DNA of 64,000 nt from a virus. Lineage: Duplodnaviria > Heunggongvirae > Uroviricota > Caudoviricetes. The notes under the pieces were generated by a model, which saw only the letters and a program-made list of their open reading frames with translations, was not told the DNA's origin and did no database searches. Shown here piece by piece: positions 13,652-64,000 of the stretch (positions are counted from its first letter, which is position 1; the number at the start of each line of letters is the position of its first letter). The stretch lies in the IMG/VR virus record IMGVR_UViG_3300045049_000270; one strand, given 5' to 3'. The translations under genes and the position numbers were made by a program.

Positions 13652-13658
13652 AATTTAC

Positions 13659-13676: not shown

Positions 13677-13703
13677 TGTAGAAAATACAACAAACAGTCA
13701 AAC

Positions 13704-14091: not shown

Positions 14092-14108
14092 TATACAGGA
14101 ATTTGGCT

Positions 14109-14531: not shown

Positions 14532-14557
14532 AAGAGGAGCGATTGCTCCTCTTTTAT
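14528..14557. terminator. Bidirectional terminator between convergent genes
   Basis: ATAAAAGAGGAGC-gatt-GCTCCTCTTTTAT. Confidence 0.85.
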
Positions 14558-16532: not shown

Positions 16533-16846
16533 TAACTGTATTTCAAAATTAATTCAATCAATTGAACATCACTACAATCGGTCAAATCCCCAGATTGATT
16601 ACCATCTTCGGTTACCAATATAATTGGAAATTGTTTGTAATTCTGATCATTTTTTGAATACTGTTCTTTTTGTTCTTTGGCAAATTTTATACTTTCAGCC
16701 AAACTTTTAGTGAAATTAGTGACAACAGATGAAGTGGTTACAACAATTTCACCATTCAAAATAATGTAACTTGGTTTTGCGTTAATCCAATTACCAATTC
16801 TATTTCTATAAATGGTAAACCAGGGCTTAATTTCATCATTCATCAT
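16532..16846 (-). CDS. Small paralogue, family A
   Basis: C-terminal DCSDVQLIELILKYS. Confidence 0.8.
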   Translation of the reverse strand: MMNDEIKPWFTIYRNRIGNWINAKPSYIILNGEIVVTTSSVVTNFTKSLAESIKFAKEQKEQYSKNDQNYKQFPIILVTEDGNQSGDLTDCSDVQLIELILKYS

Positions 16847-17124
16847 TGATAACTCAAAATAGCAACAAGATGATCATCGTCATTTGCAAGAATATGAGGT
16901 TCTTCACTTTGTGAAAATATTACAATTGGCAGCTTATGATAATAAGGTGTGAGATCCCTTATTATCTTCATAGCGTTGTATGCATCCATGAAATTGCTGT
17001 ATTCGAGCCCCGTATTAGGACCAAAAGCTGGTTTCCCTGTATGTGCTGTGGTCATTAACGGATATGTGAATTTCCAGCCAAATTCATATTGAATCAACGA
17101 TAAGTGAAAAACAGGTAATATCAT
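16843..17124 (-). CDS. Small paralogue, family A
   Basis: C-terminal ILANDDDHLVAILSY. Confidence 0.8.
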   Translation of the reverse strand: MILPVFHLSLIQYEFGWKFTYPLMTTAHTGKPAFGPNTGLEYSNFMDAYNAMKIIRDLTPYYHKLPIVIFSQSEEPHILANDDDHLVAILSYQ

Positions 17125-17417
17125 AAGTACGCCAAAATTGCTGCTACAACATCACTATCTGTTTCGATTTCCATCCATTGACCATTTTTCATGACAATGA
17201 TTGGAATATCAGTTAATTCTGCATTTTCTTCTTTTACTTTAAACGCGTCACTGATAGCATTTTTCAATGGTTGATATTGAGCTTGCTCATATATGTCATG
17301 ATCATCATAGAAGATGAGTAAGTCGTGTTCATAATACCAACTAGGGACTAGAACAGCAAAAGCATCAGCGGTTGTTGAGTAGAAAATCCCAATGTTGTAG
17401 AAATCTAGAGGTTTCAT
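17121..17417 (-). CDS. Small paralogue, family A
   Basis: C-terminal EIETDSDVVAAILAY. Confidence 0.8.
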   Translation of the reverse strand: MKPLDFYNIGIFYSTTADAFAVLVPSWYYEHDLLIFYDDHDIYEQAQYQPLKNAISDAFKVKEENAELTDIPIIVMKNGQWMEIETDSDVVAAILAYL

Positions 17418-17647
17418 TTTGAATACTTCAAAATTGCAAGTAATGCATCATTTTCACTTTCGACGACAAAAACACCGTCTTTTTCCATTAGGAGAATTTC
17501 CAGATAGTTCAAATAATCGTAATTTACCCGCAAATTCGCTGCCGTTTCTAGTGCCTGCGTGAAAGTCAGCCGTTCAATCCATGTATTATATGAAGGATAG
17601 ATCCTTTCAGGATCAGGATATCGGACAACCCAAGGTTTCTTTTTCAT
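17414..17647 (-). CDS. Small paralogue, family A
   Basis: C-terminal VVESENDALLAILKYS. Confidence 0.8.
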   Translation of the reverse strand: MKKKPWVVRYPDPERIYPSYNTWIERLTFTQALETAANLRVNYDYLNYLEILLMEKDGVFVVESENDALLAILKYSK

Positions 17648-17677
17648 CTTGGTGATATGTTATTGTTATCGCTTTTC

Positions 17678-17986
17678 TCATAATCCACTGTATTTCAAAA
17701 AGAACTCTAGAGCGGCGATCTCATCGTCAAGATAAACTCGGTCACTATTACAAACCATGATAATTGGTAGTTCACCGTACATCTCAGGTGCCAAAGTCTT
17801 CAACTTTTTAGCTATTCGTATCGCATCATTCAAATCAGTAGCACGATCTTTGCTGTACATAACATCACCAGATACTGACCAACGAAGAAACTCTTTGCCG
17901 TTAAGTGTTGGCCATTTGACAACCCATTTTGTATATTTGGCAATAATGGCGTCAGTCTCCAACATAATGTAAATCTTCTCAGACAT
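17678..17986 (-). CDS. Small paralogue, family A
   Basis: C-terminal YLDDEIAALEFFLKYS. Confidence 0.8.
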   Translation of the reverse strand: MSEKIYIMLETDAIIAKYTKWVVKWPTLNGKEFLRWSVSGDVMYSKDRATDLNDAIRIAKKLKTLAPEMYGELPIIMVCNSDRVYLDDEIAALEFFLKYSGL

Positions 17987-17990: not shown

Positions 17991-18425
17991 TCATCCCATT
18001 AGCGATAGATCCCCTAGGATCGACGCCAAATCGTCTTTCGGACCAAATACATATCCGCACGTGTCCAGTGGAATCAAATGCGTTACAGAGCCGTCTCGTA
18101 GGGGATAGGTAGGATCATGACATACACCACACACATGGCCTGCTTGAACAGCGGCCAAGAGTTTCTGCTGAAGAAGCGTTCCATCGACACTCAAAGTAAT
18201 GGCGGTGCCAAACCCACGATCACCCTTCCAATGATCGAACAGAGCACGTTCAAAGTCTGAACGAGTGCCATGCTTCATGACATTCTCGAATAAGTTGGTA
18301 GCATGTGAACCCTGGGCAACTGCTTTGCCAGGGTTCATGCTGGCAAGATCTGTGCGCATCAGGATATAGAGGCATGGCTCAGATGAATATGAAACTGCGT
18401 TCTTTTGTTTTTCTTTTGACATCAT
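17991..18425 (-). CDS. pth2: Peptidyl-tRNA hydrolase, Pth2 family
   Basis: YILMRTDLxxMxPGKAVAQGSHA signature and C-terminal TCxxxFGP...LxL. Confidence 0.85.
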   Translation of the reverse strand: MMSKEKQKNAVSYSSEPCLYILMRTDLASMNPGKAVAQGSHATNLFENVMKHGTRSDFERALFDHWKGDRGFGTAITLSVDGTLLQQKLLAAVQAGHVCGVCHDPTYPLRDGSVTHLIPLDTCGYVFGPKDDLASILGDLSLMG

Positions 18426-19068: not shown

Positions 19069-19338
19069 TTGGCAATAAAGTTTGCCATATCATCTATGTT
19101 TTCAAAACATTCAAATAAAATGAACGAAATCGTAGTCAACAACACTCAACAGCAAGTGACAGCGTCTTTTGATCTTCTGAATTTCATAATTAGTATGACA
19201 GAAGAAATTCTGTCAGATGTGGAATTCGCTTACCCCCGCAATGAATTTGATGAAGAACGAGCTAATACGATGCTACAAAAAATCCAAGGGGAAGCACGAG
19301 CGTTAAAGACCGTGGTCGAAAATATTAAGAAGTCATGA
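19069..19338 (+). CDS. Hypothetical protein
   Basis: Helical ORF with ATGA overlap to the next gene; start uncertain. Confidence 0.6.
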   Translation: MAIKFAISSMFSKHSNKMNEIVVNNTQQQVTASFDLLNFIISMTEEILSDVEFAYPRNEFDEERANTMLQKIQGEARALKTVVENIKKS

Positions 19339-19631
19339 TCTTCTTGATGCCCTTGATTGAAAATCGTAGATCAAGAAAATACTGGCAAGTCAAAGCAGGA
19401 ATCAAAATCGACGTTGTTGGGAAACGTATACGTAATTTTGATTTCAAAGATGACAACGCGCTGCAATTCAAATCCTTCCGTGAAGCCATGTTATTTGTCA
19501 AGGAAAAATGGGGATTCCCGATTGCAATATCAGACTGGGTTTTCGGTTCAGAACCAGCCTCTAACGTGCATGACGTAGAGATCGTCATGAATGAAACGGA
19601 AGCCATACAAGCACTTCTTCAATACACATGA
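19335..19631 (+). CDS. Small paralogue, family A
   Basis: SFREAM helix, FPIAI, C-terminal IVMNETEAIQALLQYT. Confidence 0.8.
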   Translation: MIFLMPLIENRRSRKYWQVKAGIKIDVVGKRIRNFDFKDDNALQFKSFREAMLFVKEKWGFPIAISDWVFGSEPASNVHDVEIVMNETEAIQALLQYT

Positions 19632-19930
19632 TCAATTGTCCATTGATAGCTTGGAGTAGATGGAGTCGATGGAGTCCATACCGTTGGTATATCTATCCAA
19701 ATGCAACATTTGATATTGAAGATAATATAATCATAAAATATAGACTTTCGACTTTACCTACTTCGGATGAAAAACCCAAGTCGTTTTCTGAAACGTTGGC
19801 TTCAGTTAAAAAGGATTACCACTATCCAATAGTGGTATTTAAGAATGAAATTGATAAAGCAACATCAGATTCTTTATTCATCATCGAAAATGAACATGAT
19901 GAAGTCGAAGCTATATTGAAATTCTCATGA
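19628..19930 (+). CDS. Small paralogue, family A
   Basis: YPIVV, C-terminal IIENEHDEVEAILKFS. Confidence 0.8.
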   Translation: MINCPLIAWSRWSRWSPYRWYIYPNATFDIEDNIIIKYRLSTLPTSDEKPKSFSETLASVKKDYHYPIVVFKNEIDKATSDSLFIIENEHDEVEAILKFS

Positions 19931-20244
19931 TCGAAAAAGTATTGTTGGTTTATTACATCTGCTATGACCAAACGTGGGAATTGCTGTTTGATGCAGAAAT
20001 AAATGTTGATGATGGATTTGGATTTCTCTATACGGTTGGGACATCAGAACACAGTTTTGATTCGTTCAGTGTAGCAATCAAATCAGCATGGTTCTATAAA
20101 AATAAGATCGATGCAAGACTTGGTGATAAACGCAAATTGTTTGTGATCAAGAATCCACGTGATAGTCGATTCTTCAACGATGATATAAGTATGTCGATAG
20201 AAACTGATAATGATATGGTTGAAGCCATTCTGAGGTTTTCATGA
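19927..20244 (+). CDS. Small paralogue, family A
   Basis: C-terminal SIETDNDMVEAILRFS. Confidence 0.8.
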   Translation: MIEKVLLVYYICYDQTWELLFDAEINVDDGFGFLYTVGTSEHSFDSFSVAIKSAWFYKNKIDARLGDKRKLFVIKNPRDSRFFNDDISMSIETDNDMVEAILRFS

Positions 20245-20564
20245 GTACCGAAATCATAGCCACCTTAGTTGGTCCAGTCCCCGAAGCTTGGGAATTACAA
20301 CCTTGGGTGGTTTACCCGAATAGAACAGTATTCGTCAATGATCAATTAAATCAAATTACCTTAGAACTATTCACATCTGGTAGATGGGATAAGGTCTTAA
20401 ATCTGTTCATCCCAGAAAAATTGGGCCAAAAGTTTGTAAAAACCAGGCAAGAAGCAATCACTTACGCATTAACATTGGGTAAACCAGTTGTAATTAAAAC
20501 GACAAATAGATTAGTCCTAATAAATGACGAATATGAAGCTATAGTAGCTCTATTAGATCAATAA
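20241..20564 (+). CDS. Small paralogue, family A
   Basis: TRQEAITYA, KPVVI, C-terminal LINDEYEAIVALL. Confidence 0.8.
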   Translation: MSTEIIATLVGPVPEAWELQPWVVYPNRTVFVNDQLNQITLELFTSGRWDKVLNLFIPEKLGQKFVKTRQEAITYALTLGKPVVIKTTNRLVLINDEYEAIVALLDQ

Positions 20565-24978: not shown

Positions 24979-25365
24979 ATGTCAGATGAAGCGAATGACT
25001 ATCTCCAGATGACCGAAGGTTCAGTAACTGGTTCAACTTACACTCCGCTTTCAGACGAAGAAGTTACGAAGCTTGCAAAAGCAATGTATCGTAATGAGGT
25101 GTTCTTCAGTTTCATGATTCCCGAGAATCAGCGAATACGGATGATTCCGATGGTGTTCATGGTTGTGCTCTTTATGGATGACATAACAAAGAAACAGCTA
25201 GTAGCAAACGAAATTGATGTGTTTTACGAATACATGTCTGAAGCTGGCCCTCGGGGAATTAACGGATATCCTACGTTTTTCTCCTGTCGCTCGATGACTC
25301 GTAATGACGGTAATCGAGTCATCAACAAATATAATGAAATCCGCAGACTTCTGGGAGATGATTAA
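24979..25365 (+). CDS. Hypothetical protein
   Basis: ORF after the promoter; GPRGINGYPTFFS motif. Confidence 0.75.
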   Translation: MSDEANDYLQMTEGSVTGSTYTPLSDEEVTKLAKAMYRNEVFFSFMIPENQRIRMIPMVFMVVLFMDDITKKQLVANEIDVFYEYMSEAGPRGINGYPTFFSCRSMTRNDGNRVINKYNEIRRLLGDD

Positions 25366-25628
25366 TGGCTGATTCGCTTACCGAAGAACAATGGAGGGCA
25401 TTAAAACCACCGTTTCACTGGATGAAGGTAAGGAAGACTTCATGGCCTAGTTTTGTTTTTGAAATGGCAGAAAAACATCTGTACACTCTTACGTCCGGTT
25501 GGTGGTACCACGGTCTGGAAACAAACGATTATCATCTATTCGTATTTGAACGAGCAGAGGACATGGTAGCGTTCAAACTGTGGATTGCCTCCGATCCGTT
25601 CAAAGAGGAATATGGAGAAATTGAGTAA
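25365..25628 (+). CDS. Small protein, family B
   Basis: FVFERAEDMVAFKLW motif. Confidence 0.8.
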   Translation: MADSLTEEQWRALKPPFHWMKVRKTSWPSFVFEMAEKHLYTLTSGWWYHGLETNDYHLFVFERAEDMVAFKLWIASDPFKEEYGEIE

Positions 25629-36228: not shown

Positions 36229-36612
36229 ATGCATATTCTTTTTGAATCTCATCCAAAAATAAAAGGTTGTATGAACACTATGACAAAAAAAGAACGGAGC
36301 ACTGTTGATTTCTCCAAATGGGAACTCAATAGTGCCGGATACGTTCATAGTGTTGAAACTACTATGCCAGACTATTCATTCGAAGACAAACTATTGTGGG
36401 AAGATAGCGAAAAGCAAAACAGCATTGAAACAAGTGGTATGCTTCCTTTAGAAATTCAAGAATGGTTTGATGAGAATGTAAAAGGGCTTTGGTTTTATGA
36501 AGTGCGATTTGGAACCAATAAAGCTGAAAGAATGTTTTATAAGAAAATGGTTTTCACATTCCACTTCGAAAAAACAGAAGATGCAGCGATTTTTAAATTG
36601 AAGTGGTGTTAA
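36229..36612 (+). CDS. Small protein, family B
   Basis: EWFDENVKGLW and C-terminal FHFEKTEDAAIFKLKW. Confidence 0.75.
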   Translation: MHILFESHPKIKGCMNTMTKKERSTVDFSKWELNSAGYVHSVETTMPDYSFEDKLLWEDSEKQNSIETSGMLPLEIQEWFDENVKGLWFYEVRFGTNKAERMFYKKMVFTFHFEKTEDAAIFKLKWC

Positions 36613-41200: not shown

Positions 41201-41897
41201 GCAAGAAGTTGATGGTGAGATTGATGAAGCATCAGACCTCAGCTTCAACGATGCTAAGGCTGAACTGCCACAAGTCAAGGATAAACTTAGCAAGATGAGT
41301 CCATTCCATCCTGATTATATCAAGATGAAGGCACGTCTGAATAAATTGCAAGACCGTCTGTCACGTATGCAAGATGACGAATTGGATGAAGACGATATGC
41401 ATCACGAACAATGGCACGTTTTCGATCATAATGATAATCCAGTTGATGGTCCATTCGGTAGCAAGGAAGAAGCAGAACAACGTTGCCGCCGTGGCGAATA
41501 TCCAAAGTTCACTGGTCGCCATGTTTCCGAAGCGTCAGATATCAGCTTCAATGATGCAAAGGCTGAACTACCAGATGTCAAAGATCGTCTGAAGAAGATG
41601 AATCCTTTTCACCCAGATTACGTGAAAACAAAGGCACGTCATGACAAGCTGCAAGATCGCTTGGCACGTAATGGTGGCGACGAAGAAACAGATGAAAGTT
41701 ATGTTTCTGGCACAGCTGGTTATTCTGGTGACACTTCAGACGTTATCGAAGATTTGTGCAAAGACGATTTCATTATGCCACGTGATCAAGCTCATGGCTT
41801 AGCTGATGAAGTTGAAGCTAAGGATAAGGACGGTCATCCGGTAGATCAAGCTATGATTGATCGCATGCGTACACTTGCTGGTTTGAACAAAATCTAA
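38232..41897 (+). CDS. Large head-associated repeat protein (probable polyprotein)
   Basis: ATAAATA at 38196; globular N-terminus (GERF, GARAM), 7 EGKS(F/Y)K(R/H)N repeats, 2 ASDxSFNDAKAELP repeats, C-terminal RMRTLAGL. Confidence 0.8.
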   Translation: MIDFSELALETFQVLRAYGKDIVLYDENGNRVFEPSDARRFYLSDDNILVSVLEDGDNSSIKVYLSGNITIAEVMEFVTVLRRIATQFNVLFNVRKYNKQIVPRDFATQAAVQEQQEYSSMNIMEGLYGTSKSSYLKLENARMIVRHSARVKENMIGGRGRSIQSIFVENAKGERFLFPVNVLSGARAMTQHVNHGGTFADEVGQQIIRMAQDFSNLATVANHIHVNQDALPGQALKMRESIRESAKAIRLSFERMCRDLPAYIRESERITAAQSLTESPEAFSERVEMLRSFLMVEGVELADSVLETVCHRVAVEEDMRPNANPSDGEEPQDGNNYADQQQEKTAVQPKQPIKPMTPGQNQDSDDNVYSGQDGAFHEDEDMANADPDEELAEENEVIRAFEAWMDEFNPDSMFEGKSYKHNDDDEESADEKKKQDKERREERENKKRTDESVEELKAKVEKLSKEYADCDDFPTARHEIKAELDKAKEELAKAESLEEGKSFKRNKDEDADDKKKQDKQRRDDQKGKQERTDESVYGAKWFKNKGQWLDAVHHINVDDDNGSAASYGGKLVAKWYDDRNEGWVSDAHMHVSEGNIEEMRFHELNAMLEGKSFKRNKDDDADQKKKDDQKRREERRKEPVEEGKSFKRNDDEDGDVKQKRKEDQKRREERKQEPVEEGKSFKRNKDDDADAKKKEDQKRREEKRREPVEEAENIKKGAFHKWLGKSENSPITDADIKKGLNSRDPHARKMAQFAKNMEKAHESVEMDEGKSFKRNDEESKGKKDKHEERRKAREEKKRTDEAVSPTTMEVLRDHGYDVEFVPSHMRNNDDYRHDQWTVTHMGEYSDFPDVIGKVYDQDEGWELAARHFQKSGGMTPSTGAELGEGKSFKRNDDDDAQSKKEKDQERRKARDEKRRTDEGAKFEMGPLDIEYAFPSGGKYGFSNEADGCYYTDGVKVWKGERISPYAEDFLERSAANLIAQMKELMKAGALQEVDGEIDEASDLSFNDAKAELPQVKDKLSKMSPFHPDYIKMKARLNKLQDRLSRMQDDELDEDDMHHEQWHVFDHNDNPVDGPFGSKEEAEQRCRRGEYPKFTGRHVSEASDISFNDAKAELPDVKDRLKKMNPFHPDYVKTKARHDKLQDRLARNGGDEETDESYVSGTAGYSGDTSDVIEDLCKDDFIMPRDQAHGLADEVEAKDKDGHPVDQAMIDRMRTLAGLNKI

Positions 41898-41928
41898 TTT
41901 TGACGTACTAAGTAGGTGGCAGTAACCT

Positions 41929-41964
41929 GGCATATGGTGTGGAAAATGCACCATATGCCTTTCT
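41929..41964 (+). terminator. Terminator
   Basis: GGCATATGGTGT/GCACCATATGCC followed by TTTCT. Confidence 0.75.
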
Positions 41965-42000
41965 ATTTGATATTTCGAAATCGAAAAAGAATTAAGGAAG

Positions 42001-42207
42001 ATAAATAGAAATGTCGGCGCAAAAAAACAATTTGCGGCGTCTAGGCAAAGACAGTTACACTAGAAGTACTTAAAGAAAGCGGCAAAGTAAAGGCAAACTA
42101 AATTATAAAACTTTTATTTTGCAGTTTAAGAGCTGTTAGCGTAAACTGTAAGAAGTAGGCAACTACAAATTACAACAAATAAACAACAAAAATAAAGGCA
42201 AAACAAA
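42001..42207 (+). promoter_or_regulatory. Late promoter and long A-rich leader of the ssDNA-binding protein gene
   Basis: ATAAATA at 42001, repeated (A)GGCAA, a stem-loop near 42119..42151, then an unstructured A/C tract. Confidence 0.6.
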
Positions 42208-43179
42208 ATGGCATCCCTTCAAGAAATTCAAGCAAAGCTTCTCGAACAAGCAAACAAGTCAACTGGCGAACGTCCAAACCAGAGCACTGGTGATAACGCT
42301 TCGTATCCTTTCTGGAATACTCCAGAAAACGCAACTTCCCAACTTCGTTTCCTTCCTGATGGTGATCAGGACAATACGTTTTTCTGGCAAGAACGTCAGA
42401 TCATCAAGCTGCCTTTCAGCGGCGTTGTTGGTCAATCGGACAACGAAGTAACCGTGCAAGTTCCTTGCGTTGATATGTTCGGTGATCGTTGCCCAATTAC
42501 TGAAGCCATCCGCCCATGGTGGAAGGACGACAGCAAGAAGGATTTGGCTCGCGTTTACTACAAGAAGAAGAGCTACCTGTTCCAAGGCTTCGTTGTAAAC
42601 AGCGCATTCGAAGAACAGAATGTCCCAGAAAATCCAATTCGTCGTTTTATCATCAACCCAAGCATTTATGAAATCATCAAGAATTCATTGATGAATCCAG
42701 AAATGGAAGATCTACCAACCGACTTTATCGGTGGTCGTGACTTCAAGTTGACGAAGACAAAGAAGGGCGAATATGCGAACTATTCAACATCACAATGGTC
42801 ATTCAAGGTTCGTGCTTTGAACGAAGCAGAATTGAGTGCAATTGACCAATATGGTTTGTGGAACCTGAAGGAATTCCTGGGCGCCCGTCCAGACCGTGAC
42901 GGTATCGACATGATCAAGGCGATGTTTGAAGACAGCTTGGCTGGTCGGCCATTCGACATGGCAAGCTACGGTTCTGTATATCGCCCACAAGGTGCATTTA
43001 AGCAAGGTGGCGCTACTGCACCAGCAGCTTCAACAGCGCGTTACTCAGCACCAGCTGCCAGCGATGACACTCACGAAGAGTCATATGCTCCAGCACCAGC
43101 GGCTGCCCCAGCAGCATCAAGCGCAAAGCCAAACGCACAGGATATCCTAGCGCGTATTAAGGCTCGCACATCTAACTAA
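42208..43179 (+). CDS. gp32: Single-stranded DNA-binding protein (T4 gp32-like)
   Basis: LRFLPD, C...CPI, GRDFKLTK, ANYSTS; located upstream of uvsX. Confidence 0.9.
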   Translation: MASLQEIQAKLLEQANKSTGERPNQSTGDNASYPFWNTPENATSQLRFLPDGDQDNTFFWQERQIIKLPFSGVVGQSDNEVTVQVPCVDMFGDRCPITEAIRPWWKDDSKKDLARVYYKKKSYLFQGFVVNSAFEEQNVPENPIRRFIINPSIYEIIKNSLMNPEMEDLPTDFIGGRDFKLTKTKKGEYANYSTSQWSFKVRALNEAELSAIDQYGLWNLKEFLGARPDRDGIDMIKAMFEDSLAGRPFDMASYGSVYRPQGAFKQGGATAPAASTARYSAPAASDDTHEESYAPAPAAAPAASSAKPNAQDILARIKARTSN

Positions 43180-43264
43180 TTCATATTAGTTCAAGATTAA
43201 AGGGAAGCAGGCAACTGCTTCCCGATGCGCTTATCACACCAAAATAGGCAAAGAATAATAACAA

Positions 43265-44338
43265 ATGAAAGCGATTGACATTTCCAAGTTTCGTAAATCA
43301 ATCACTAGTGCAATTAACGGCATTAGTGTTGGTTTTAATGATCCACAGACGTGGGTCAGTACTGGTAACTATGCGCTGAACTATTTGATCTCAAGCGACT
43401 TCTTCAAGGGTGTACCACTTGGTAAGTCAACGATGTTTGCGGGTCAATCTGGTTCAGGTAAGTCATTCCTGGTATCAGGCAACATCGTGCGTGAAGCACA
43501 AAAGCAAGGTATTTTTGTGGTCTTGATCGACACTGAAAATGCACTTGATGAAGCATGGCTGAAGGCACTTGACGTAGACACATCGGAAGACAAACTGATG
43601 CGTATCAGCGCAGCTATGATTGATGATGTGGCTAAGATTATTAGCGACTTCATGAAAGAATACAAAGCAATGTACAAAGACGTTCCACGCGATGAACGGC
43701 AAAAGGTGATGTTCATCGTTGACTCACTGGGTATGTTGATGACGCCAACTGATGTTGATCAATTTGAACGTGGTGAATTGAAGGGTGACATGGGTCGCAA
43801 GCCAAAGGCACTGAAAGCATTGGTGACAAATGTTACTAATATGTTTGGTGAATACGATGTTGGTTTGGTCACAACTAACCACTCTTATGCTTCACAAGAT
43901 ATGTTTGATCCTGATGACAAGATCTCTGGTGGCCAGGGTGTTGTTTATGCTGCTTCAATTGTAGTTGCCATGCAGAAACGTAAACTGAAGGAAGATGCCG
44001 AAGGTAATAAGACGTCAGAAGTAATGGGCATTCGTGCAGCTATTAAGGTGATGAAGTCACGTTATGCTAAGCCATTCGAAGCAATGGAAGTAAAGATCCC
44101 ATACGATACTGGTATGGATCCATATTCTGGTTTGATCGAATTGTTTGAAAGCAAGGGAGTATTGCAAAAAGATGGCAATAAGCTAAAATATGTGGCTACT
44201 GACGGAACTGAACACAAGATGTTCCGTAAGCAAATCACTGATGAACTGCTCATGCAAATCATGCTTGAGTGGAATCACAAGCTTGCTGCTGATGAAGCAA
44301 ATCTCCAAGATCCAGTTGTCGAGGATGATAGCGAATGA
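43265..44338 (+). CDS. uvsX: RecA-like recombinase UvsX
   Basis: STGNYALN, GQSGSGKS, IDTENA, IVDSLG, SGGQG. Confidence 0.96.
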   Translation: MKAIDISKFRKSITSAINGISVGFNDPQTWVSTGNYALNYLISSDFFKGVPLGKSTMFAGQSGSGKSFLVSGNIVREAQKQGIFVVLIDTENALDEAWLKALDVDTSEDKLMRISAAMIDDVAKIISDFMKEYKAMYKDVPRDERQKVMFIVDSLGMLMTPTDVDQFERGELKGDMGRKPKALKALVTNVTNMFGEYDVGLVTTNHSYASQDMFDPDDKISGGQGVVYAASIVVAMQKRKLKEDAEGNKTSEVMGIRAAIKVMKSRYAKPFEAMEVKIPYDTGMDPYSGLIELFESKGVLQKDGNKLKYVATDGTEHKMFRKQITDELLMQIMLEWNHKLAADEANLQDPVVEDDSE

Positions 44339-44598
44339 GCATCGAGGTTGAAGTTGATTTGTTTCTAGAACTTTGGGATTCTGTAAAAGACTTCATCCCT
44401 GCAAAGTCACGTGACGATGTTGCTGAGGAATTCCTCAGCACATTAGTGAATTTCGGGGTTGATGCCAAAGAACTGGGCATTATTGCGGAAGAAGACCGCA
44501 ATCTGCATAATGCGTATGAAGCTATGTATGGCCAGGAAATCGTTGACGAAGATGAAGAAGACGATGGTGGTGATTATAGTGAACTGAACTTCGATTAA
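44335..44598 (+). CDS. Hypothetical acidic protein
   Basis: Coupled ORF between uvsX and uvsY. Confidence 0.75.
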   Translation: MSIEVEVDLFLELWDSVKDFIPAKSRDDVAEEFLSTLVNFGVDAKELGIIAEEDRNLHNAYEAMYGQEIVDEDEEDDGGDYSELNFD

Positions 44599-44609
44599 AA
44601 GGAAAAATA

Positions 44610-45077
44610 ATGAGCGGGTGGTATGGCCGTATTACTGCGGATCCAGAAGATCTGACGCCACTCGTCGAGTGTTTGCTCCATTACGAACAAGAGCATGAAG
44701 AAGCACTCGCCGAGGTTAAAACAAAAGGCAAGATCGAACACATTTCAAAACAGATACCAGGTTGGTCTGCGTATCGTTTTGCACAATTGCAAGAGCTTGA
44801 AGCGGTCCTTGAATATTTGAATATTCAATTGCGAAAAGTAAAGGGTGAACGTTATCAGTTTTATATGGAAAAGTATGCACGACAACTAACCAGTCGTGAT
44901 GCTGACAAGTATGCTGATGCTGATCCAAAAGTTCTCGATCTTGCACTGCTCATTAACCAAGTTGCGTTAACACGTAATAAGTTCCTTGCAATCATGAAAG
45001 GATTAGAATGTTTGAATTGGCAAATTTCAAACATTGTAAAATTGCGTGTGGCTGGAATCGAGGACGCGACTATCTAA
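44610..45077 (+). CDS. uvsY: Recombination mediator UvsY-like
   Basis: Helical protein ending IVKLRVAGIED; downstream of uvsX. Confidence 0.8.
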   Translation: MSGWYGRITADPEDLTPLVECLLHYEQEHEEALAEVKTKGKIEHISKQIPGWSAYRFAQLQELEAVLEYLNIQLRKVKGERYQFYMEKYARQLTSRDADKYADADPKVLDLALLINQVALTRNKFLAIMKGLECLNWQISNIVKLRVAGIEDATI

Positions 45078-51657: not shown

Positions 51658-52248
51658 ATGGTTAGAACTGATATTGACATTGACTTTGCCAATAGAGATT
51701 TGGCATTGGCAGAGCTTGCTCATATTCCTGCGTCAATCGAAAAGAATAATGCCTTTGTACGACATAACAGTGGCGTATACTTTCAAAATATTCCTGTCAA
51801 TCCGTTTACCGAATTGGCAAGTATTCCATATCAACAAGCTGAAGAGTTAGGATATATCAAGATCGACTTCTTGAACAACAGTATCTATTCTGGCGTAAGA
51901 GATGAAAAGCATCTTGATGAATTGTGTAATAGGGAGCCAGATTGGGAATTTCTTGAATCACACGATTTCGTTGATATGCTTGCCCATTTACATGGTCATT
52001 TTGATGTAGTCGACGCTATCAAGCCAAAAAATGTAATTGATTTGGCAATTTGTTTGGCTCTAATTCGCCCAGGTAAGCGGCATCTACTAAATAAAAGTAG
52101 AGCCGAAATTGATAAAGAGATTTGGATCCAGCCTTCAGATGGAACCTATCATTTTAAGAAGTCACATAGTTTAGCCTATGCGATGTCAATAGTGGTTCAG
52201 ATGAATCTTATTGTCGAACAGGCATTAGAAAGCAGTGACAACGAATGA
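51658..52248 (+). CDS. Minimal DNA polymerase III alpha (DnaE)-like protein
   Basis: DIDIDF, HNSGV, GYIKIDFL, ALIRPG, FKKSHSLAYA motifs in 196 aa. Confidence 0.85.
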   Translation: MVRTDIDIDFANRDLALAELAHIPASIEKNNAFVRHNSGVYFQNIPVNPFTELASIPYQQAEELGYIKIDFLNNSIYSGVRDEKHLDELCNREPDWEFLESHDFVDMLAHLHGHFDVVDAIKPKNVIDLAICLALIRPGKRHLLNKSRAEIDKEIWIQPSDGTYHFKKSHSLAYAMSIVVQMNLIVEQALESSDNE

Positions 52249-52675
52249 TAAACGATCATTAATTGAGCCATCAGCACAAATATGCGTTGGTACTGATGGT
52301 TATCGAGAACCATGGTTGTGTGCCGATGTCACTAGAGGCAATGAAATCTGGTATACCATTCGCCTCTTTCCGCTCTACCATCATGAGAAGCGATTAACAA
52401 CTGGTCGCTTTGTTCAATACAGTTCAAGTCCTCTAGACTATCAAGCAACTGTTCGACTTAACACTACAAAACCATTGCCAGTTTATGCTGGTATTGAGTT
52501 TCCAACTTTCAATGCGATTGTGCAAAAGCAGGTCGAATGGTGTGTCGAACAATGTGCAGAATTGGGTGGTCAATGGTCAATTCATATTGAATCATTTTCT
52601 GTTACTGATCTTGCAATAAATTATACCTTCAATAATCCTACTGTAGCCGTTGCTTTTAAATTGATCTGGCTATGA
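52235..52675 (+). CDS. Small protein, family B
   Basis: EWC...GQW and C-terminal YTFNNPTVAVAFKLIW. Confidence 0.75.
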   Translation: MTTNDKRSLIEPSAQICVGTDGYREPWLCADVTRGNEIWYTIRLFPLYHHEKRLTTGRFVQYSSSPLDYQATVRLNTTKPLPVYAGIEFPTFNAIVQKQVEWCVEQCAELGGQWSIHIESFSVTDLAINYTFNNPTVAVAFKLIWL

Positions 52676-52914
52676 GCCATTTCAAAGTAATGCAGCCTCG
52701 TGTTCTTCCTCGTTTTGAAACGTTGAAGTTTATAGTCGCTATCAATCAAATAGCTAGTTTTCGAGAACTAGCTTCAATCTATAGCTGGTGTTATATGAAC
52801 TGTACTGAATGGAACCTCCAAATTGCCAACAATCTGGAGGATCCTGGTGTGGTATTGTTTGGATTTAATGATGAATTAGAAGCCCTGATGTTTAAACTTA
52901 CTTGGGCTTGCTAA
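52672..52914 (+). CDS. Small protein, family B
   Basis: SWCYMNC and C-terminal FGFNDELEALMFKLTW. Confidence 0.78.
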   Translation: MSHFKVMQPRVLPRFETLKFIVAINQIASFRELASIYSWCYMNCTEWNLQIANNLEDPGVVLFGFNDELEALMFKLTWAC

Positions 52915-59679: not shown

Positions 59680-59707
59680 ATGGTGAGGAAATCTTCCTCA
59701 CCATTTT
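59680..59707 (+). terminator. Terminator
   Basis: ATGGTGAGGAA/TTCCTCACCAT followed by TTT. Confidence 0.7.
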
Positions 59708-59721: not shown

Positions 59722-59750
59722 TTGCTTGGTTTCAATATTTCGTATAGAGT
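59722..59750 (+). promoter_or_regulatory. Sigma70-like promoter
   Basis: TTGCTT-17 nt-TAGAGT. Confidence 0.5.
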
Positions 59751-59774
59751 GTGCCAAAAACAAATGGCACCTCT

Positions 59775-60779
59775 ATGAGCATACCACATTTTTCCTCACT
59801 TTCAGCCAAACGAAAGCAATTCGTATTTGATCATTTCGATGAATTTCAAGTTCAAGAAAAGATCGACGGCAGCTATCTGAAATTCAAAAACGACACTGGC
59901 TTCTACTGGGCCACGCGTAAGGGAAGCAATTCACCCATCTATAAATCACCAGATGAATGGGGGGCTGATTTTTGGGTTACTGGCTTTCGCGCCGCTCATA
60001 CCGCATTGATTCAATCATTGCCAGCATTTCATGATAATTACTTCAATTGGGGGCCTTTGTATCCATCTGGGGTATTGCTTGAACTTGAAGTTGTATTCGC
60101 CGACACACCTAACACTATCTTTTACTCAGATAAAAACCATCTGATTATCCACACCCCAGTTGGCCAATTTGCTTATGCTTTGACACAAACTGTGACGTTA
60201 TCTGATGTGCCGGTAACAGATGATGGATACACAATTAAACGGATCTCAAAAACGTATGATTTTGAAATCACAAATCTAGCTTATCACGATAATATCACGA
60301 TGCTGGGCTCAGGACTTATTAAACGCGGATTCATTAACAATGTTGATGAACTTGAACAAGGCTTGCTACATCATGTGCAAACTAGTTTGAGTGTTCTATC
60401 TGGAACTGGGGCAGCCAGAATGGAAGGATTGGTTTTCAAACATCAAGATGGTTGGATGTTCAAAATTGTTGATAAACAATGGTTTACTGAAGCCAACAAA
60501 CAGAATTACGCATTCCGTAACACATTGTTCAAGTCACCACGCGGCTTCAGAAATTCGTTGATGGATCGATTTTACGATATGCTGGCAAAAGGTACAGATG
60601 CAAAGATTGCCGCTTCAGAAGCATTGAAACAGCTTGATGTTGAACATCAGCTTTATATGAAATGGGATCATTCTCGACTTGAAGCATTCGTACATAAACG
60701 CAATCTTGAAGCTCTGGCCAGCATCAGAGCACAATTAAACAATATCGCAGTAAATGGCTTACCTAATGAAAGTAACTGA
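59775..60779 (+). CDS. ATP-grasp RNA ligase-like nucleotidyltransferase
   Basis: Motif I EKIDGS, motif III LELE, motif IV EGLVF, motif V FKIVDK. Confidence 0.75.
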   Translation: MSIPHFSSLSAKRKQFVFDHFDEFQVQEKIDGSYLKFKNDTGFYWATRKGSNSPIYKSPDEWGADFWVTGFRAAHTALIQSLPAFHDNYFNWGPLYPSGVLLELEVVFADTPNTIFYSDKNHLIIHTPVGQFAYALTQTVTLSDVPVTDDGYTIKRISKTYDFEITNLAYHDNITMLGSGLIKRGFINNVDELEQGLLHHVQTSLSVLSGTGAARMEGLVFKHQDGWMFKIVDKQWFTEANKQNYAFRNTLFKSPRGFRNSLMDRFYDMLAKGTDAKIAASEALKQLDVEHQLYMKWDHSRLEAFVHKRNLEALASIRAQLNNIAVNGLPNESN

Positions 60780-61086
60780 TTGGTTCAAAAAGAAGATTAA
60801 CGAGAATAAAACCACTGGTAGTTATGTGGTTATTTGTGAAGAAGCAAAGACAGTTTGGCCCTATGTTGAAGTTGCCCCGCAGGCTGGCTACGAGACGTAC
60901 TACGAGCTTCAAGCAGCAATCTTCACACTGAACAAGCAAATAAAGAAAGAATCGGCCATATCGTCATACTACCCAATGGTGATGCCATTACTGAATAATT
61001 TGTATTTCTTCTTCACGACTGAACAAGAGAAACAAGCGGCAATCACATACTTAGAAACCAACAATAACGAATTCAAACTATTATGA
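60766..61086 (+). CDS. Small paralogue, family B (WP subgroup)
   Basis: VTDWF...WPYV...FFFTTEQE. Confidence 0.78.
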   Translation: MKVTDWFKKKINENKTTGSYVVICEEAKTVWPYVEVAPQAGYETYYELQAAIFTLNKQIKKESAISSYYPMVMPLLNNLYFFFTTEQEKQAAITYLETNNNEFKLL

Positions 61087-61415
61087 GTACCAAACCTGAT
61101 CGCCCAAGTATCTTGTCCTGGGTACAGGATCATCAAGATTATGTTACTACTATTGCCATCAGGGAGAACTGGCCATTTGTAGAAATTGATTTATCGGGCC
61201 TATGGCCAGAGTACGGTGTCACCGATCATGAGGCGATTGCGATTATTACTAACCATTTATATGAAATATGTGATAGTGGATGGGATTGGTATTCAAAATG
61301 GCAAGTGAATTCATCCACTACAATCGTCATAGGATTTACTTTTAATACTGATGCGGTGGCATTCAAATTAACTATCAACGATTATTTCCTATCAAAATCA
61401 CGTCGCCATGCATGA
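61083..61415 (+). CDS. Small paralogue, family B (WP subgroup)
   Basis: SILSW...WPFV...IGFTFNTDAVAFKL. Confidence 0.8.
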   Translation: MSTKPDRPSILSWVQDHQDYVTTIAIRENWPFVEIDLSGLWPEYGVTDHEAIAIITNHLYEICDSGWDWYSKWQVNSSTTIVIGFTFNTDAVAFKLTINDYFLSKSRRHA

Positions 61416-61746
61416 CAAAAATATATTTGCCTGGTTTAAAGAACTCGAAGAAAAATTAGGTCAATACAAATATAATCATAACTTCTGCCGAGATGTAATC
61501 AAAGAATGGCCATATATTTCGTTTGAATCGAAAAAGGATTGGACTTTAATGAAACAAGGACAGAATCCAGTATGGTCAGCCGAAGTACGTTCGATCATCA
61601 AAGAGATATGCCCACCCGAAGATTTTATTGTGGTAGCGTACGGTCCACAATTGGTAATTGGCTTTCAGGATGTAACTACTGCGGTCGCCGTCTCAATGCA
61701 GATAAGCAAGAATTCTGATTCGTACATGGTGACCTATGGGTGGTAA
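61408..61746 (+). CDS. Small paralogue, family B (WP subgroup)
   Basis: NIFAW...WPYI...IGFQDVTTAV. Confidence 0.8.
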   Translation: MHDKNIFAWFKELEEKLGQYKYNHNFCRDVIKEWPYISFESKKDWTLMKQGQNPVWSAEVRSIIKEICPPEDFIVVAYGPQLVIGFQDVTTAVAVSMQISKNSDSYMVTYGW

Positions 61747-62080
61747 GTCTATTCAATCATGGTTAAATGACTATAAGACGGATTATGCTCATGGGATTCC
61801 AACTATACAATTTCGAGACCTGGTTGCACAGCTTATGCAAGGCGATTGGCCTCGAATGATTATCGAGGAAACAGACCCCGGAGACCGTGCTTGGCATCAT
61901 ATGCCAAGATGGTGCAATAGTGTTCACGATTGTCTACTAGAAATTTTTGAATCGGATGAAGATTTCTTAGTCGTTTTTCATAGTGGAAAATGCCTAGTGT
62001 TTTTCACCAGTATTAGTGAAGCAGTGCAGGCTAGACTACTAATAACAGCCAATCGAGGGTTTGAGATATCATATGAGTGA
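61736..62080 (+). CDS. Small paralogue, family B (WP subgroup)
   Basis: SIQSW...WPRM...VFFTSISEAVQARL. Confidence 0.8.
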   Translation: MGGKSIQSWLNDYKTDYAHGIPTIQFRDLVAQLMQGDWPRMIIEETDPGDRAWHHMPRWCNSVHDCLLEIFESDEDFLVVFHSGKCLVFFTSISEAVQARLLITANRGFEISYE

Positions 62081-62444
62081 TAAAACGATCGTTGAATGGT
62101 ATAGACAAATCAGATCCTATCTAGAGGAACCAGATGTCGAAAATTACAATTGGGTGACTTTGATTGAACAAAACTGGCCGCATATCAAAATAGTAATTCC
62201 AAAGGCAACAAGTGCTCGTCATCTTGAATATTGGATGTCCAAGTATGCATTTGTGGCGGATGAAGCACTTGGTGGCCCCGGGCATTGGATCTCGGCCGCC
62301 GAGACCTATTTCGGTCGAACAGGTGAAGATTACGGTATAGTCGTTACAATTGGATTTTCCACGATTGTTGACGCAGTAAATGTTAGACTTTTCTTTTCAC
62401 CACTAGAAGAACAGCATATTGTGAGTTTTGGTTATGACAAATGA
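62073..62444 (+). CDS. Small paralogue, family B (WP subgroup)
   Basis: TIVEW...WPHI...IGFSTIVDAVNVRL. Confidence 0.8.
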   Translation: MSDKTIVEWYRQIRSYLEEPDVENYNWVTLIEQNWPHIKIVIPKATSARHLEYWMSKYAFVADEALGGPGHWISAAETYFGRTGEDYGIVVTIGFSTIVDAVNVRLFFSPLEEQHIVSFGYDK

Positions 62445-62829
62445 AACAGTAAGAGAATGGCGAGATCGTAAGAAACTGGAACATACCGGTAGATGGCCTA
62501 TCGCATTTGCTAGGGTGATACCACAGTACTGGCCATACGCCGTCCTGACTTTCTCGAACGAGGATTGTATGAAGCTTGGATTATCTTGTATCAAGTATTA
62601 TTACTATGATCACCCAGAAACCAAAGGAACTTTATGTATGTTGACCCACAAAAAGCTAAAGGAAGCATTGGGTGGATCAGATAAAGATTTTGTGATCTCG
62701 TACAAACAAGGTAAAACTTGTTCTTTCGTGATTGGCTTCACTGACATAACAATTGCCATTCAAGCAATACTATCGTTTGATGCAAGCATCGCTAGTGAAT
62801 TTTCGTTACATAAACCGGAGGAAAAATAA
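62434..62829 (+). CDS. Small paralogue, family B (WP subgroup)
   Basis: TVREW...WPYA...IGFTDITIAIQAIL. Confidence 0.8.
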   Translation: MTNETVREWRDRKKLEHTGRWPIAFARVIPQYWPYAVLTFSNEDCMKLGLSCIKYYYYDHPETKGTLCMLTHKKLKEALGGSDKDFVISYKQGKTCSFVIGFTDITIAIQAILSFDASIASEFSLHKPEEK

Positions 62830-63869
62830 TGGGAGGTCGAGCTTTTGACAATGTCGTACCTGTCCCTCAGGAGACAATTTTCAAGATCTGTGCCTGGGTT
62901 TCGACTCTGTTTGAGCTTCGCGATGAGAGTTACGACCCCACCAAATTTGAGGACTTCTGCCTGGGTTTGATGTCGTCCATGAAGGGCTTTAGCCCTGACA
63001 CGATTGGCTACCTCCATGAATTATTCGTGAAGAATGGTTTAAGGACATTGGGGTCTACTGGGAAGAAGTTGTATTGTGGTGATGTGGATATTGGTGTATC
63101 TGATGCTGAGTGGACTTATAGCTCCTTAGTGGATTTTCTGACTATTAGATTTGGTAGTGACAATATCAAGACCAATGAGAGTTTGAATCAGATTTATACT
63201 CGGGTGTATGTTCCTAGTAGTGGATGGCACCAGGTTGATTATATGTTGGGTGATGTTCGGTTATTGGAGTTTACTCATTGGAGTCCTGCTCCTGATACGT
63301 CATTGTATTCGGGTAGTCATCGTACTGAATTGATTAAGGCTGTGGCGAAGGCCTTATCGTCGTGGACGTGGGTGATGCCATCTGATTGTGCCTATAATAA
63401 TGGTGAGATGATTGCTCGTATTGGTTATACTTTGAACCATGATCGGGGATTAGTTCATGGTGCTCGGTATGCACCAGCAAGAATTGATGGACGTGGATAC
63501 ACTAAGAAAATGGTTCCGGTCACTGCTGCCAATATTGTCGCTTGTATGAGGCAGGTAAGTGATGCTCATAGTTGTAATTATTTGAGTGAAGTGGAGATGT
63601 TGTCATTTTTCCGCCATAGTGTAGATGAGATATTGACGAAAACCTCTGTGGATCCTGTATTCATTAGTCAGCAATTATTTGGTATTGGGGTGATGCCGGA
63701 GTCACTAAATAGTTACGAGCAAGTAGTTGAAGCCATTATGGCCAACTCTGAACTATGTAACCTACGTGACCTGATATGGCAGTTGTATGTTGAGCGACTG
63801 ATGCAGATAGGTCAGCCTATTCCATCGCCGGGACTCAATGACCTATTCATTTTTCACCGAGTTAACTGA
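62829..63869 (+). CDS. Pol-beta superfamily nucleotidyltransferase
   Basis: MGGxAF N-terminus, LGSTGKK...GDVD (GS...DxD) and QVD third aspartate. Confidence 0.75.
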   Translation: MGGRAFDNVVPVPQETIFKICAWVSTLFELRDESYDPTKFEDFCLGLMSSMKGFSPDTIGYLHELFVKNGLRTLGSTGKKLYCGDVDIGVSDAEWTYSSLVDFLTIRFGSDNIKTNESLNQIYTRVYVPSSGWHQVDYMLGDVRLLEFTHWSPAPDTSLYSGSHRTELIKAVAKALSSWTWVMPSDCAYNNGEMIARIGYTLNHDRGLVHGARYAPARIDGRGYTKKMVPVTAANIVACMRQVSDAHSCNYLSEVEMLSFFRHSVDEILTKTSVDPVFISQQLFGIGVMPESLNSYEQVVEAIMANSELCNLRDLIWQLYVERLMQIGQPIPSPGLNDLFIFHRVN

Positions 63870-64000
63870 AAGTAAGTTAATTCCTAGTTATTGGCATGTA
63901 AGCCAATATAGTGCTGAGGATATTGGAAATCTTATCTATTTGTATTGTATGGGGTTGCATGTTCTTGCGACCAACCCTATCACTGCACAATATGCCTCTG

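Follow-up and report, generated by a model that had tools for sequence, protein, structure and literature searches.

Do the six small genes that lie between an RNA-ligase-fold gene and a nucleotidyltransferase (NTase) gene in a jumbo myophage form one system with the two enzymes, and on what would these enzymes act? The window, a stretch of 64,000 nucleotides from a virus of the Caudoviricetes (IMG/VR record IMGVR_UViG_3300045049_000270), stems from the genome of an Atu_ph07/Phosso-like jumbo myophage. On its + strand follow, in order, the gene of a putative ligase-fold enzyme (59775..60779, 334 aa; assigned from its fold model, its motifs and a match to a DUF6267 profile), six overlapping paralogues of 110–131 aa, and the gene of a Pol-beta-superfamily NTase (62829..63869, 346 aa, beginning MGG; assigned from invariant catalytic residues). 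The six array members, all + strand, are P1 (60754..61086; the most divergent, with orthologues in relatives), P2 (61083..61415; by profile score the nearest to a genome-wide family with a DA-x2-FKL motif), P3 (61408..61746; ferredoxin/RRM-like fold predicted by AF2), P4 (61736..62080; no orthologue in the closest relative, G001), P5 (62073..62444; orthologue 30% identical) and P6 (62434..62829; orthologue 29% identical). A sequence-only reading of this DNA had described the genes as overlapping or coupled, which holds for all seven junctions of the eight successive ORFs: computed with ATG starts at 59775, 62073 and 62434, the overlaps are 26, 4, 8, 11, 8, 11 and 1 nt. Two of its limits needed revision. 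For the ligase gene, placed at GTG 59751, the most likely start is ATG 59775, in view of homologues that begin M(S/G)IxHF. Nor is the NTase the last gene of the unit: the next ORF (63838..64000, +; only its start lies within the window) shares 32 nt with it, and in L006, Atu_ph07 and Phosso a homologue of this ORF follows the NTase. This ORF shares 63% identity with the L006 gene and matches Atu_ph07 gp64 (E 4.5e-5), a protein that appears in the virion Table S5 (PMC6102473). The enzyme genes are located within a block of virion genes, near primase and helicase genes. No end-healing kinase or phosphatase was seen from 53.4 kb to the window end, which counts against a role of the pair in filling and sealing RNA.

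The same reading had proposed one promoter for the locus. The candidate (59722..59751, +; TTGCTT ... TATAGAGTG, 15-nt spacing) has a poor -35 element, and a sigma-70 consensus scan, which found 9 sites against 18.4 expected, returned none at 59722, where the element is below threshold. Its TATAG element at 59743 is aligned in the window, L004, L006, Atu_ph07 and Phosso, that is, in four of five relatives (not in L007). Upstream, a hairpin followed by a short T run (59680..59704, +; z -4.4, with 0 of 200 shuffles equally stable) likely terminates the upstream virion-type gene block. It was not called by the consensus scan; hairpins occur at the matching place in L004, L006 and L007, and in PA5oct a terminator is listed at the equivalent junction, after EST35_0227. 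The promoter thus fails as a consensus site, whereas hairpin and shared TATAG element support a transcription boundary near 59722.

The assignment of the first gene as ATP-grasp ligase-like is supported. Its product carries EKIDG (residue 28), TRK, ELEVVF, EGLVF (217) and FKIVD (229), and thereby the KxDG lysine and motifs Ia, III, IV (EG) and V (K) of ATP-grasp covalent nucleotidyltransferases; E30-K31-D33-G34, R50, E107, E219-G220 and K232 (alignment numbering) are invariant in 11 homologues. The AF2 model (pLDDT 87) has a C-terminal helical bundle and no OB domain. Its top VIA matches are RNA ligases (5cot, Z 9.3, rmsd 3.8, 178 aligned; 1xdn, 8.8; 2hvq, 8.2), consistent with an adenylyltransferase fold (Z 9.3, 8.8, 8.3 and 8.2 to RNA ligases over 173–214 residues); RNA ligases take all six top places, DNA ligases come to about 7, and Z-scores of 8–9 are only modestly above background. 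Against PF09414 (Rnl2) the protein scores 19.8 bits (E 9e-4), under the curated cut-off of 27 bits, and close homologues reach 25.2–25.4. The family is borderline for PF09414, because the G002 orthologue, found by six-frame search, scores 28.4 bits. We rejected identification with canonical Rnl2 on the basis of the sub-threshold score and of Rnl2-family ligases encoded elsewhere in relatives. The window protein has no Pfam match to DUF6267 (PF19782) at E ≤ 1, and its homologue P0008 matches below cut-off (E 0.002). With a DUF6267 profile seeded from three PF19782-positive proteins, hhalign aligned 88 columns (93.7%, E 2e-7). By this profile comparison, the window ligase is a distant relative of DUF6267, a domain of T4-like cyanophages and uncultured phages that frequently neighbours, or is fused with, a HIGH cytidyltransferase; the term was not found in the literature searched. 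The two share a homologous ligase-like domain and the same NTase partner. They differ in motif I (EKIDG in the window, KWDG in DUF6267) and in position (upstream versus downstream of the NTase), and the window protein has no cytidyltransferase domain.

The Pol-beta assignment of the last gene is likewise supported by GS (75), DVD (85/87) and QVD (135–137). G75, S76, D85, D87 and D137 are invariant in 36 aligned homologues, and GS..DxD is found in 120 and QxD in 123 of 128 matches. In the Atlas, the protein has a feature score of 0.97 to a viral 'Nucleotidyltransferase' cluster, and its model matches unnamed viral clusters and a PF01909-bearing cluster at TM 0.65. The NTase profile retrieved no solved Pol X from PDB sequences at E ≤ 1, only two chance rows, and no characterised protein-NMPylating enzyme or CD-NTase proved similar in Pfam, PHROGs or PDB sequence searches. 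Among individual homologues, P0038 matches DNA_pol_B_palm (PF14792, E 7.6e-4), P0115 carries a fused ATP-dependent DNA-ligase domain (E 4e-9), P0099, L089 and L126 show fusion to a HIGH cytidyltransferase-like domain, and P0036 to GNAT domains. We considered and rejected RlaP (PF10127) as its identity: none of the 36 aligned homologues matches at E ≤ 0.1, and a true RlaP is encoded elsewhere in three of five relatives' genomes, as are Rnl2-family ligases in four of five. Since relatives already encode these enzymes, the pair may do another job.

The proposed linkage of the two enzymes stands. A ligase-like or DUF6267 domain, and with it the genetic association with an RNA-ligase-fold gene that characterises RlaP-type NTases, is present in 72 of 80 NTase loci (19 + 47 separate, 6 fused) and in 39 of 44 clusters at 90% identity; DUF6267 itself is adjacent or fused to the NTase in 53 of the 80 loci. 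Six of 128 NTase matches carry an N-terminal ligase-like domain (E ≤ 6e-13) and three a C-terminal DUF6267. Eight of 80 loci lack a ligase-like domain, four of these having a short flank. RsoM2USA has the ligase and no NTase match within 16 kb, Lak-B6 the NTase and no ligase within 11 kb, S-PM2 has DUF6267 beside a cytidyltransferase instead of the NTase, and in PA5oct two genes separate the pair. Ligase and NTase are a conserved, but not obligate, pair. A scan gave at least 326 confirmed viral loci.

All six array proteins share an invariant N-terminal W, WP and C-terminal F, so that their description as paralogues largely holds, with the kinship of P1 the weakest. Shuffle z-scores link P3–P6 at 8–10 and P2 at about 4–5; the best z for P1 is 2.5–3.5 within the window and 7.5 to a relative's P3 orthologue. 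P1 has orthologues in G001 (49%), in P0147 and probably in the first L006 member, and each of the three loci with an array has a P1-type gene immediately behind the ligase. Compared with G001, where P4 has no counterpart and the P2 orthologue is 40% identical, array proteins are 29–49% identical versus 58% and 63% for the enzymes, and thus diverge more rapidly. The P3 model (pLDDT 86) is ferredoxin/RRM-like with two extra N-terminal helices and has generic ferredoxin-like VIA matches (Z 5.8–7.6). No array protein matches Pfam RRM (PF00076), and the predicted fold is common to ACT and other ferredoxin-like domains. In being small phage proteins with a predicted RRM-like fold, the array members resemble the T4 translational repressor RegA, whose RRM fold is noted in PMC7824862. 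The Pfam match of P3 to RegA is non-significant (E 0.18, 28 residues), and RegA is not among the 50 fold matches listed.

Profiles of the family from which array members were left out put its size in G001 at about 86–97 copies: one gives 86 matches there, 33 in G002, 49 in Phosso, 3 in Atu_ph07 and 4 in PA5oct, and another gives 97 ORFs in G001. On such a profile P2 scores 23.5 bits (E 1e-5; best decoy 8.3 bits), P3, P4 and P6 score 8.9–9.7 bits (0 of 2286 decoys as high), P5 scores 6.9 bits (one decoy as high) and P1 4.5 bits (12 of 2286 as high), which by profile alone does not place P1 in the family. Judged by profiles and motifs, the array is a sub-group of this genome-wide DA-x2-FKL family, for which no Pfam or PHROG family was found among 30 members tested (DA-x2-FKL-x-W). 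Array and family share a C-terminal strand-F-x4-A-x2-FKL helix, a length of about 110 aa, acidity and tandem overlapping arrangement. Unlike the rest of the family, the array adds an N-terminal W helix, a WP strand and a C-terminal strand, most of its members have lost FKL, and it sits inside an enzyme operon. The W..WP extension is present in 13 of 13 array rows versus 3 of 101 other members. Array size does vary between the fixed enzymes, as the sequence-only reading had asked: 6, 5 or 2 copies in the array-bearing lineage and 0 in others. Of 44 clusters at 90% identity, only two have an array between the enzymes, and both belong to the lineage of the window. That reading took the array as part of the enzyme system, and named unlinked array and enzymes in relatives as evidence to the contrary. 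This is largely what we find, with no array between the enzymes in 42 of 44 clusters and family members scattered over dozens of unrelated places within the same phages. In G002 and Phosso, the enzyme genes overlap directly despite 33 and 49 family matches.

Published mass spectrometry places NTase orthologues in virions, under the labels 'hypothetical' or 'structural' only: Atu_ph07 gp65 with 10 peptides and 36.8% coverage (PMC6102473 Table S5; its mass matches the table entry) from PEG-purified virions, which weakens the case for packaging, and PA5oct EST35_0231 with 6 peptides and 57% coverage (PMC7318152 Table S5). The ligase-like gp66 (Atu_ph07) and EST35_0228 (PA5oct) are not listed in these tables (PMC6102473, PMC7318152), nor is any of five family members checked in two cultured phages. 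A Gly-Gly element in 90 NTase homologues follows Met1 in 58 and Glu in 22. In 19 of these 22 leader-bearing homologues, L/I-x-E directly precedes Gly-Gly, and it also occurs inside fusion linkers. L/I-X-E is described in PMC9026906 as the site of the T4 prohead protease gp21, which cuts capsid-targeting propeptides of internal and ejection proteins. With this predicted cleavage site, the leader-bearing homologues resemble such proteins; the window NTase (MGGRAF) and ligase (MSIPHF), in contrast, have no cleavable leader, and packaging of the window NTase therefore rests on its orthologues. Taken together, the NTase is probably loaded into the phage head.

As interchangeable specificity subunits, the six small proteins would steer ligase or NTase to different RNAs or proteins. 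The changing copy number (2, 5 or 6) between fixed enzymes with overlapping junctions throughout, the near confinement of the W..WP sub-group to the locus, the constant place of the P1-type gene and a predicted fold common among RNA-binding proteins would fit this. We nevertheless regard it as improbable, and at most a local co-option in one lineage, since the enzymes stand without an array even in phages with many family copies, members turn up in dozens of further contexts, and NTase orthologues are found in virions whereas the family members checked are missing from the virion tables. The members are for the most part acidic (window pI 4.9–5.6, except P6 at 8.3), which RNA binders typically are not. 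A frameshifted P3 (P0145) on one 290-kb contig also speaks against it, although this could be a sequencing error. A bolder version, in which a head-packed Pol-beta NTase of T4-like jumbo phages, always matured to a free N-terminal Gly-Gly, is injected for host RNA repair or tagging before gene expression, with the array, a branch of the largest small-protein expansion, recruited as swappable RRM-fold adaptors choosing the substrates of NTase and ligase in one lineage, seems highly improbable. Against a passenger array it counts that the W..WP extension is nearly confined to the array, that the array has the same place and order in three phages, a constancy not required of passive passengers, that the profile does not place P1 in the family, and that a tree gave no resolved branching. 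Since most relatives keep the enzymes without them, the six small genes are probably passengers, and we are confident that the enzymes do not need the array.

As to substrate, the comparison closest at hand is RlaP (PF10127) with Rnl1/Rnl2, which Iyer et al. 2021 (PMC7824862) treat as RNA-repair pairs of jumbo phages; RlaP adds 1–2 NMP to damaged RNA 3'-OH ends, according to PMC12776372. The window pair likewise ties a Pol-beta NTase to an ATP-grasp RNA-ligase-fold enzyme in a jumbo phage, with the same catalytic logic. It differs in its NTase family, which lacks an RlaP match, in its ligase under the PF09414 cut-off, in its virion gene block, and in having virion-associated NTase orthologues; true RlaP and Rnl2 are encoded at other sites of these genomes. 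A Pol X-like enzyme plus ligase that together fill gaps and seal nicks in the DNA of the injected genome, as a minimal kit with the array as passenger, would accord with virion association, the P0038 and P0115 matches and the nearby primase and helicase genes. It is unlikely, given the helical C-terminus without OB domain and better RNA-ligase matches of the ligase model, the absence of ligase-like orthologues from both virion tables and the lack of a solved Pol X among the matches of the NTase profile at E ≤ 1. Alternatively, the NTase, once injected, could help in host takeover or counter-defence by NMPylating proteins or by making a nucleotide product, and the adenylating ligase-fold enzyme could belong to this pathway. 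This would agree with the virion association, with head-protease sites recalling T4 injected proteins, with a mature N-terminal Gly-Gly kept whether by Met removal or by cleavage, and with HIGH cytidyltransferase-like and GNAT fusions suggestive of metabolite or protein chemistry. It is nonetheless quite doubtful: Pfam, PHROGs and PDB sequence searches turned up no resemblance to characterised NMPylases of proteins or to CD-NTases, and a persistent RNA-ligase-fold linkage fits nucleic-acid ends better. We consider the chances evenly divided between RNA on one side and DNA or protein on the other.

We somewhat favour a conserved RNA fill-and-seal enzyme pair that would restore missing nucleotides at broken RNA ends and rejoin them, its NTase probably virion-loaded, accompanied by a lineage-specific passenger array. 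In this hypothetical scenario, with a division of labour modelled on the RlaP plus Rnl2 proposal, (i) the NTase would be brought in along with the genome and, through D85/D87/D137 and two metals, add NMP to a 3'-OH; (ii) the ligase, made after infection, would be adenylated at K29 (motif I), move AMP to a 5'-phosphate and seal the end. The array may have originated when, in this lineage, a single copy of the family inserted where the two enzyme genes overlap, gained the N-terminal W..WP extension and duplicated locally, with translational coupling keeping the copies in phase.

The enzyme pair is widespread and unannotated in cultured phages, and the virion tables open the way to a direct test, in a model Pseudomonas phage, of a virion-borne enzyme that had gone unnoticed. 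Should the pair repair RNA by filling and sealing, the phage would bring a pre-emptive counter-defence along in its head; should the substrates be DNA or proteins, the pair would have a new activity early in infection.

All eight open reading frames (ORFs) described by the sequence-only reading as a single operon are present, from the gene with an RNA-ligase fold (ligase-like, 59775..60779, +), through the array of six small genes P1–P6 (60754..62829), to the Pol-beta nucleotidyltransferase (NTase) gene (62829..63869, +). Successive junctions overlap by 26, 4, 8, 11, 8, 11 and 1 nt, a ninth ORF overlaps the NTase gene by 32 nt, and the probable start of the ligase-like gene is the ATG at 59775. 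The six small ORFs are indeed paralogues with an invariant W, WP and F; the signal is clear for P3–P6 (z 8–10), lower for P2 (z 4–5) and weak for P1. Upstream of the ligase-like gene, a hairpin at 59680–59704 (z -4.4) recurs in related loci (L004 of the relative genome G001, L006, and L007 of the relative genome G002), and the consulted portion of the PA5oct annotation lists a terminator at the equivalent junction. The promoter claimed here was borne out only in part: the consensus scan called none and gives no support for a sigma-70 promoter at 59722, but a TATAG element lies 3' of the hairpin in five of six aligned sequences.

Besides genes that we take, from their translations, to encode portal, prohead protease and major capsid proteins, the window carries RecA-like and UvsW-like genes, a primase and a helicase. 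The order primase, helicase, small genes, a larger virion-type gene, ligase-like gene and NTase gene is common to the window, Phosso and Atu_ph07; PA5oct has the same primase-to-NTase order, but with two genes inserted. Among 50,697 phage records searched, matches were confined to jumbo myophages for both the NTase (three records; Phosso and Atu_ph07) and the ligase-like protein (four records; Phosso, Atu_ph07 and RsoM2USA). The window also encodes, at 17991–18425 (-), what is presumably a Pth2-type peptidyl-tRNA hydrolase look-alike, judging by its GK-x-x-AQ motif, which fits the translation-rescue genes in the same phage group.

The linkage of the two enzymes extends well beyond the window. 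A locus scan yielded 599 candidate stretches, at least 326 of them confirmed, of which the best 80, obtained with the narrower alignment A8, were analysed; single-protein locus scans yielded little. In 72 of these best 80 of at least 326 loci, the NTase shares its locus with a ligase-like or DUF6267 domain, as separate genes (19 ligase-like, 47 DUF6267) or fused (6). By cluster, this holds for 39 of 44 when loci are grouped at 90% identity and for 11 of 13 when they are grouped at 50%; the sample is uneven, 56 of the 80 loci falling into a single 50% cluster. DUF6267 is remotely homologous to the ligase-like protein (profile–profile comparison, 93.7%). Ligase–NTase fusions make up six of the 128 NTase matches, and a domain scan of 29 chosen proteins found three NTase–DUF6267 fusions among the 128. 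The other eight of the 80 loci show no such partner, four of them with a short flank. Within the stretches fetched, RsoM2USA has the ligase-like gene and no NTase, Lak-B6 has the NTase and no ligase-like gene, and S-PM2 has DUF6267 with a cytidyltransferase. In other lineages, a small gene with an MR(L/I)-x-E leader stands between ligase and NTase, as in loci L062, L063, L065, L066, L071, L091 and L094, and at 7322–7567 of L050; the similar PA5oct product EST35_0230 is a virion protein in the part of the source consulted.

The array varies in size between the fixed enzymes, with six genes in the window, five in G001 (L004), two in L006 and none in G002 (L007), Phosso and Atu_ph07. A search with the array alignment returned eight proteins only, all of the types found in the window's lineage. 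In G001, the closest complete relative, from which the genome-wide counts were taken, the array orthologues stand in unchanged order and share 49, 40, 39, 30 and 29% identity with those of the window; the two enzymes share 58 and 63%, and P4 has no orthologue there. P0145, from a near-identical phage on a 290-kb contig, is a frameshifted P3 of 100 aa, which may be either a real loss or an error. The array is related to a genome-wide family of small proteins with a DA-x2-FKL motif (FKL family). Starting with the array, iterative searches of G001 and the window collected 108 ORFs, with no matches on reversed ORFs. An independently built profile, which started with a distant array of G001 and excluded members of the array between the enzymes, gathered 101 ORFs: four elsewhere in the window (25365–25625, 36229–36612, 52235–52675 and 52672–52914) and 97 in G001, whose largest cluster holds 25; in the count of 97, one to three false members may persist (the starting list omitted three doubtful rows) and ORFs spanning the borders of 20-kb stretches may be missed. 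On this profile, P2 scores 23.5 bits, P3, P4 and P6 8.9–9.7, P5 6.9 and P1 4.5, with 8.3 bits as the best of 2,286 reversed decoys. Tandem family arrays in G001 lie at 197846–205485 (25 members), 369054–375654 (16), 463623–470318 (14) and 41379–44895 (8), and a 45-row family profile gave 86 matches in G001, 33 in G002, 49 in Phosso, three in Atu_ph07 and four in PA5oct.

Neither Pfam nor PHROGs gave a name to the six array ORFs or to 30 family members, an Atlas feature search with P3 gave only leads below 0.9, and BFVD returned a single unnamed match (E 6e-4). P3 is predicted to fold into two helices and a ferredoxin/RRM-like core (pLDDT 86) with generic matches only (Z up to 7.6); the top hit, 3g8q (a tRNA deaminase domain, Z 7.6), ties with unrelated ferredoxin-like domains and was not read as a function. 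In the portions of the sources consulted, none of the five family members checked in cultured phages (PA5oct EST35_0247, 0274 and 0275; Atu_ph07 gp255 and gp258) is flagged as a virion protein, and a promoter is listed ahead of EST35_0274. At 15092–17986 (-) and 19335–20564 (+), the window has another group of small tandem ORFs, about 13 in number and 77–112 aa long, with a D-x-D-x2-A-x-L-x-Y-like tail; FKL-family profiles at E<=0.01 did not gather it, and it is possibly another expanded family.

The NTase search covered 1.84 billion representatives and produced 128 matches, of which 120 contain the GS..DxD pattern and 123 the QxD pattern, and G75, S76, D85, D87 and D137 are invariant across 36 aligned rows. 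RlaP identity was rejected, since none of these 36 homologues matched RlaP (or a PHROG) and a true RlaP is encoded elsewhere in three of five related genomes. The Atlas groups the NTase with viral 'Nucleotidyltransferase' and DUF6267-containing clusters. Other homologues are a tandem double NTase (P0068), a GNAT fusion (P0036) and a fusion to an ATP-dependent DNA-ligase domain (P0115). Motifs I, Ia, III, IV and V of the ligase-like protein show no variation across 11 homologues. Its AF2 model (pLDDT 87) finds RNA ligases as best structural matches among 48,161 chains, at Z-scores only modestly above background (5cot 9.3, 1xdn 8.8, 6n0t 8.3, T4 Rnl2 8.2; DNA ligases about 7), and its modelled C-terminus is a helical bundle with no OB fold. 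Canonical Rnl2 identity was likewise rejected, as the protein scores below the PF09414 cut-off and Rnl2-family ligases are encoded elsewhere in four of five related genomes. PDB sequence searches gave no match for either enzyme.

A Pol-beta NTase alongside an RNA-ligase-fold enzyme is a known kind of pairing. RlaP adds one or two NMP onto damaged RNA, according to the consulted part of PMC12776372, and its cooperation with a ligase is a proposal in section 3.4.9 of PMC7824862. By analogy to both, RNA would be the most likely substrate of the pair, a reading that we believe and doubt in about equal measure; the NTase would add an NMP to a 3'-OH and the ligase-like enzyme would seal via lysyl-AMP. 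We consider DNA gap repair by the pair unlikely; NMPylation of proteins or metabolites by the pair appears quite unlikely. The six small proteins had been read as interchangeable specificity subunits of two enzymes. The enzyme folds and motifs, the linkage and the variable array support parts of that interpretation, but the array as part of the system is not supported, standing between the enzymes in only two of 44 clusters among the best 80 loci. The enzymes very probably do not require it, and its use as adaptors in the window's own lineage is highly improbable. A quick, poorly resolved tree built from 15 array members and 30 from the wider family does not recover a single origin for the array (six changes). 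Against a pure passenger, the W..WP extension occurs in 13 of 13 array rows versus three of 101 other family members, and the array is kept in place across three phages.

NTase orthologues without the RNA-ligase-like protein appear in the consulted portions of two virion tables. Atu_ph07 gp65, an orthologue of 32.16 kDa, is represented by 10 peptides in Table S5 of PMC6102473, a PEG-purified preparation; gp64, gp67, gp68 and gp69 are also listed there and the ligase-like gp66 is absent. In PA5oct, the protein matched by the NTase profile is EST35_0231, represented in Table S5 of PMC7318152 by six peptides (57% coverage); the ligase-like EST35_0228 is absent from that file. These orthologues are virion-detected although the gene stands behind a terminator and a possibly early promoter. 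A tandem array of another kind follows the Atu_ph07 NTase and gp64 (gp55–gp63; 9582–16573 of locus L002). Its paralogues are about 250 aa long and carry an M(R/K)W(H/E/Q)QL-x-E-type leader, and every one of them is in the same portion of the virion table. Arrays are attracted to the NTase neighbourhood in more than one lineage.

Among the 128 NTase matches, 10 lack the motif, 28 are off the Gly-Gly pattern (several of which start MGG or MSG) and 90 were scored. The residue before the Gly-Gly element is Met1 in 58 of these, Glu in 22, a Met inside the protein in six and some other residue in four. In 19 of the 22 Glu cases, versus 16% expected, it is preceded by L/I-x-E, which is the T4 gp21 cleavage site (PMC9026906); the site also occurs within fusion linkers of NTase homologues. 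The window NTase has no leader, as is the case for both virion-detected orthologues.

The literature searched yielded no description of the enzyme pair or of the small-protein family, nor the term DUF6267; supplements S1.8 and S5 of PMC7824862 may list the enzymes. New here are the neighbourhood counts, the placement of NTase orthologues in virion tables and the cleavage-site statistic. From the virion tables, the Gly-Gly position and the L/I-x-E sites, we infer that the mature NTase has Gly as its first residue and that, in many lineages, it is loaded into the head.
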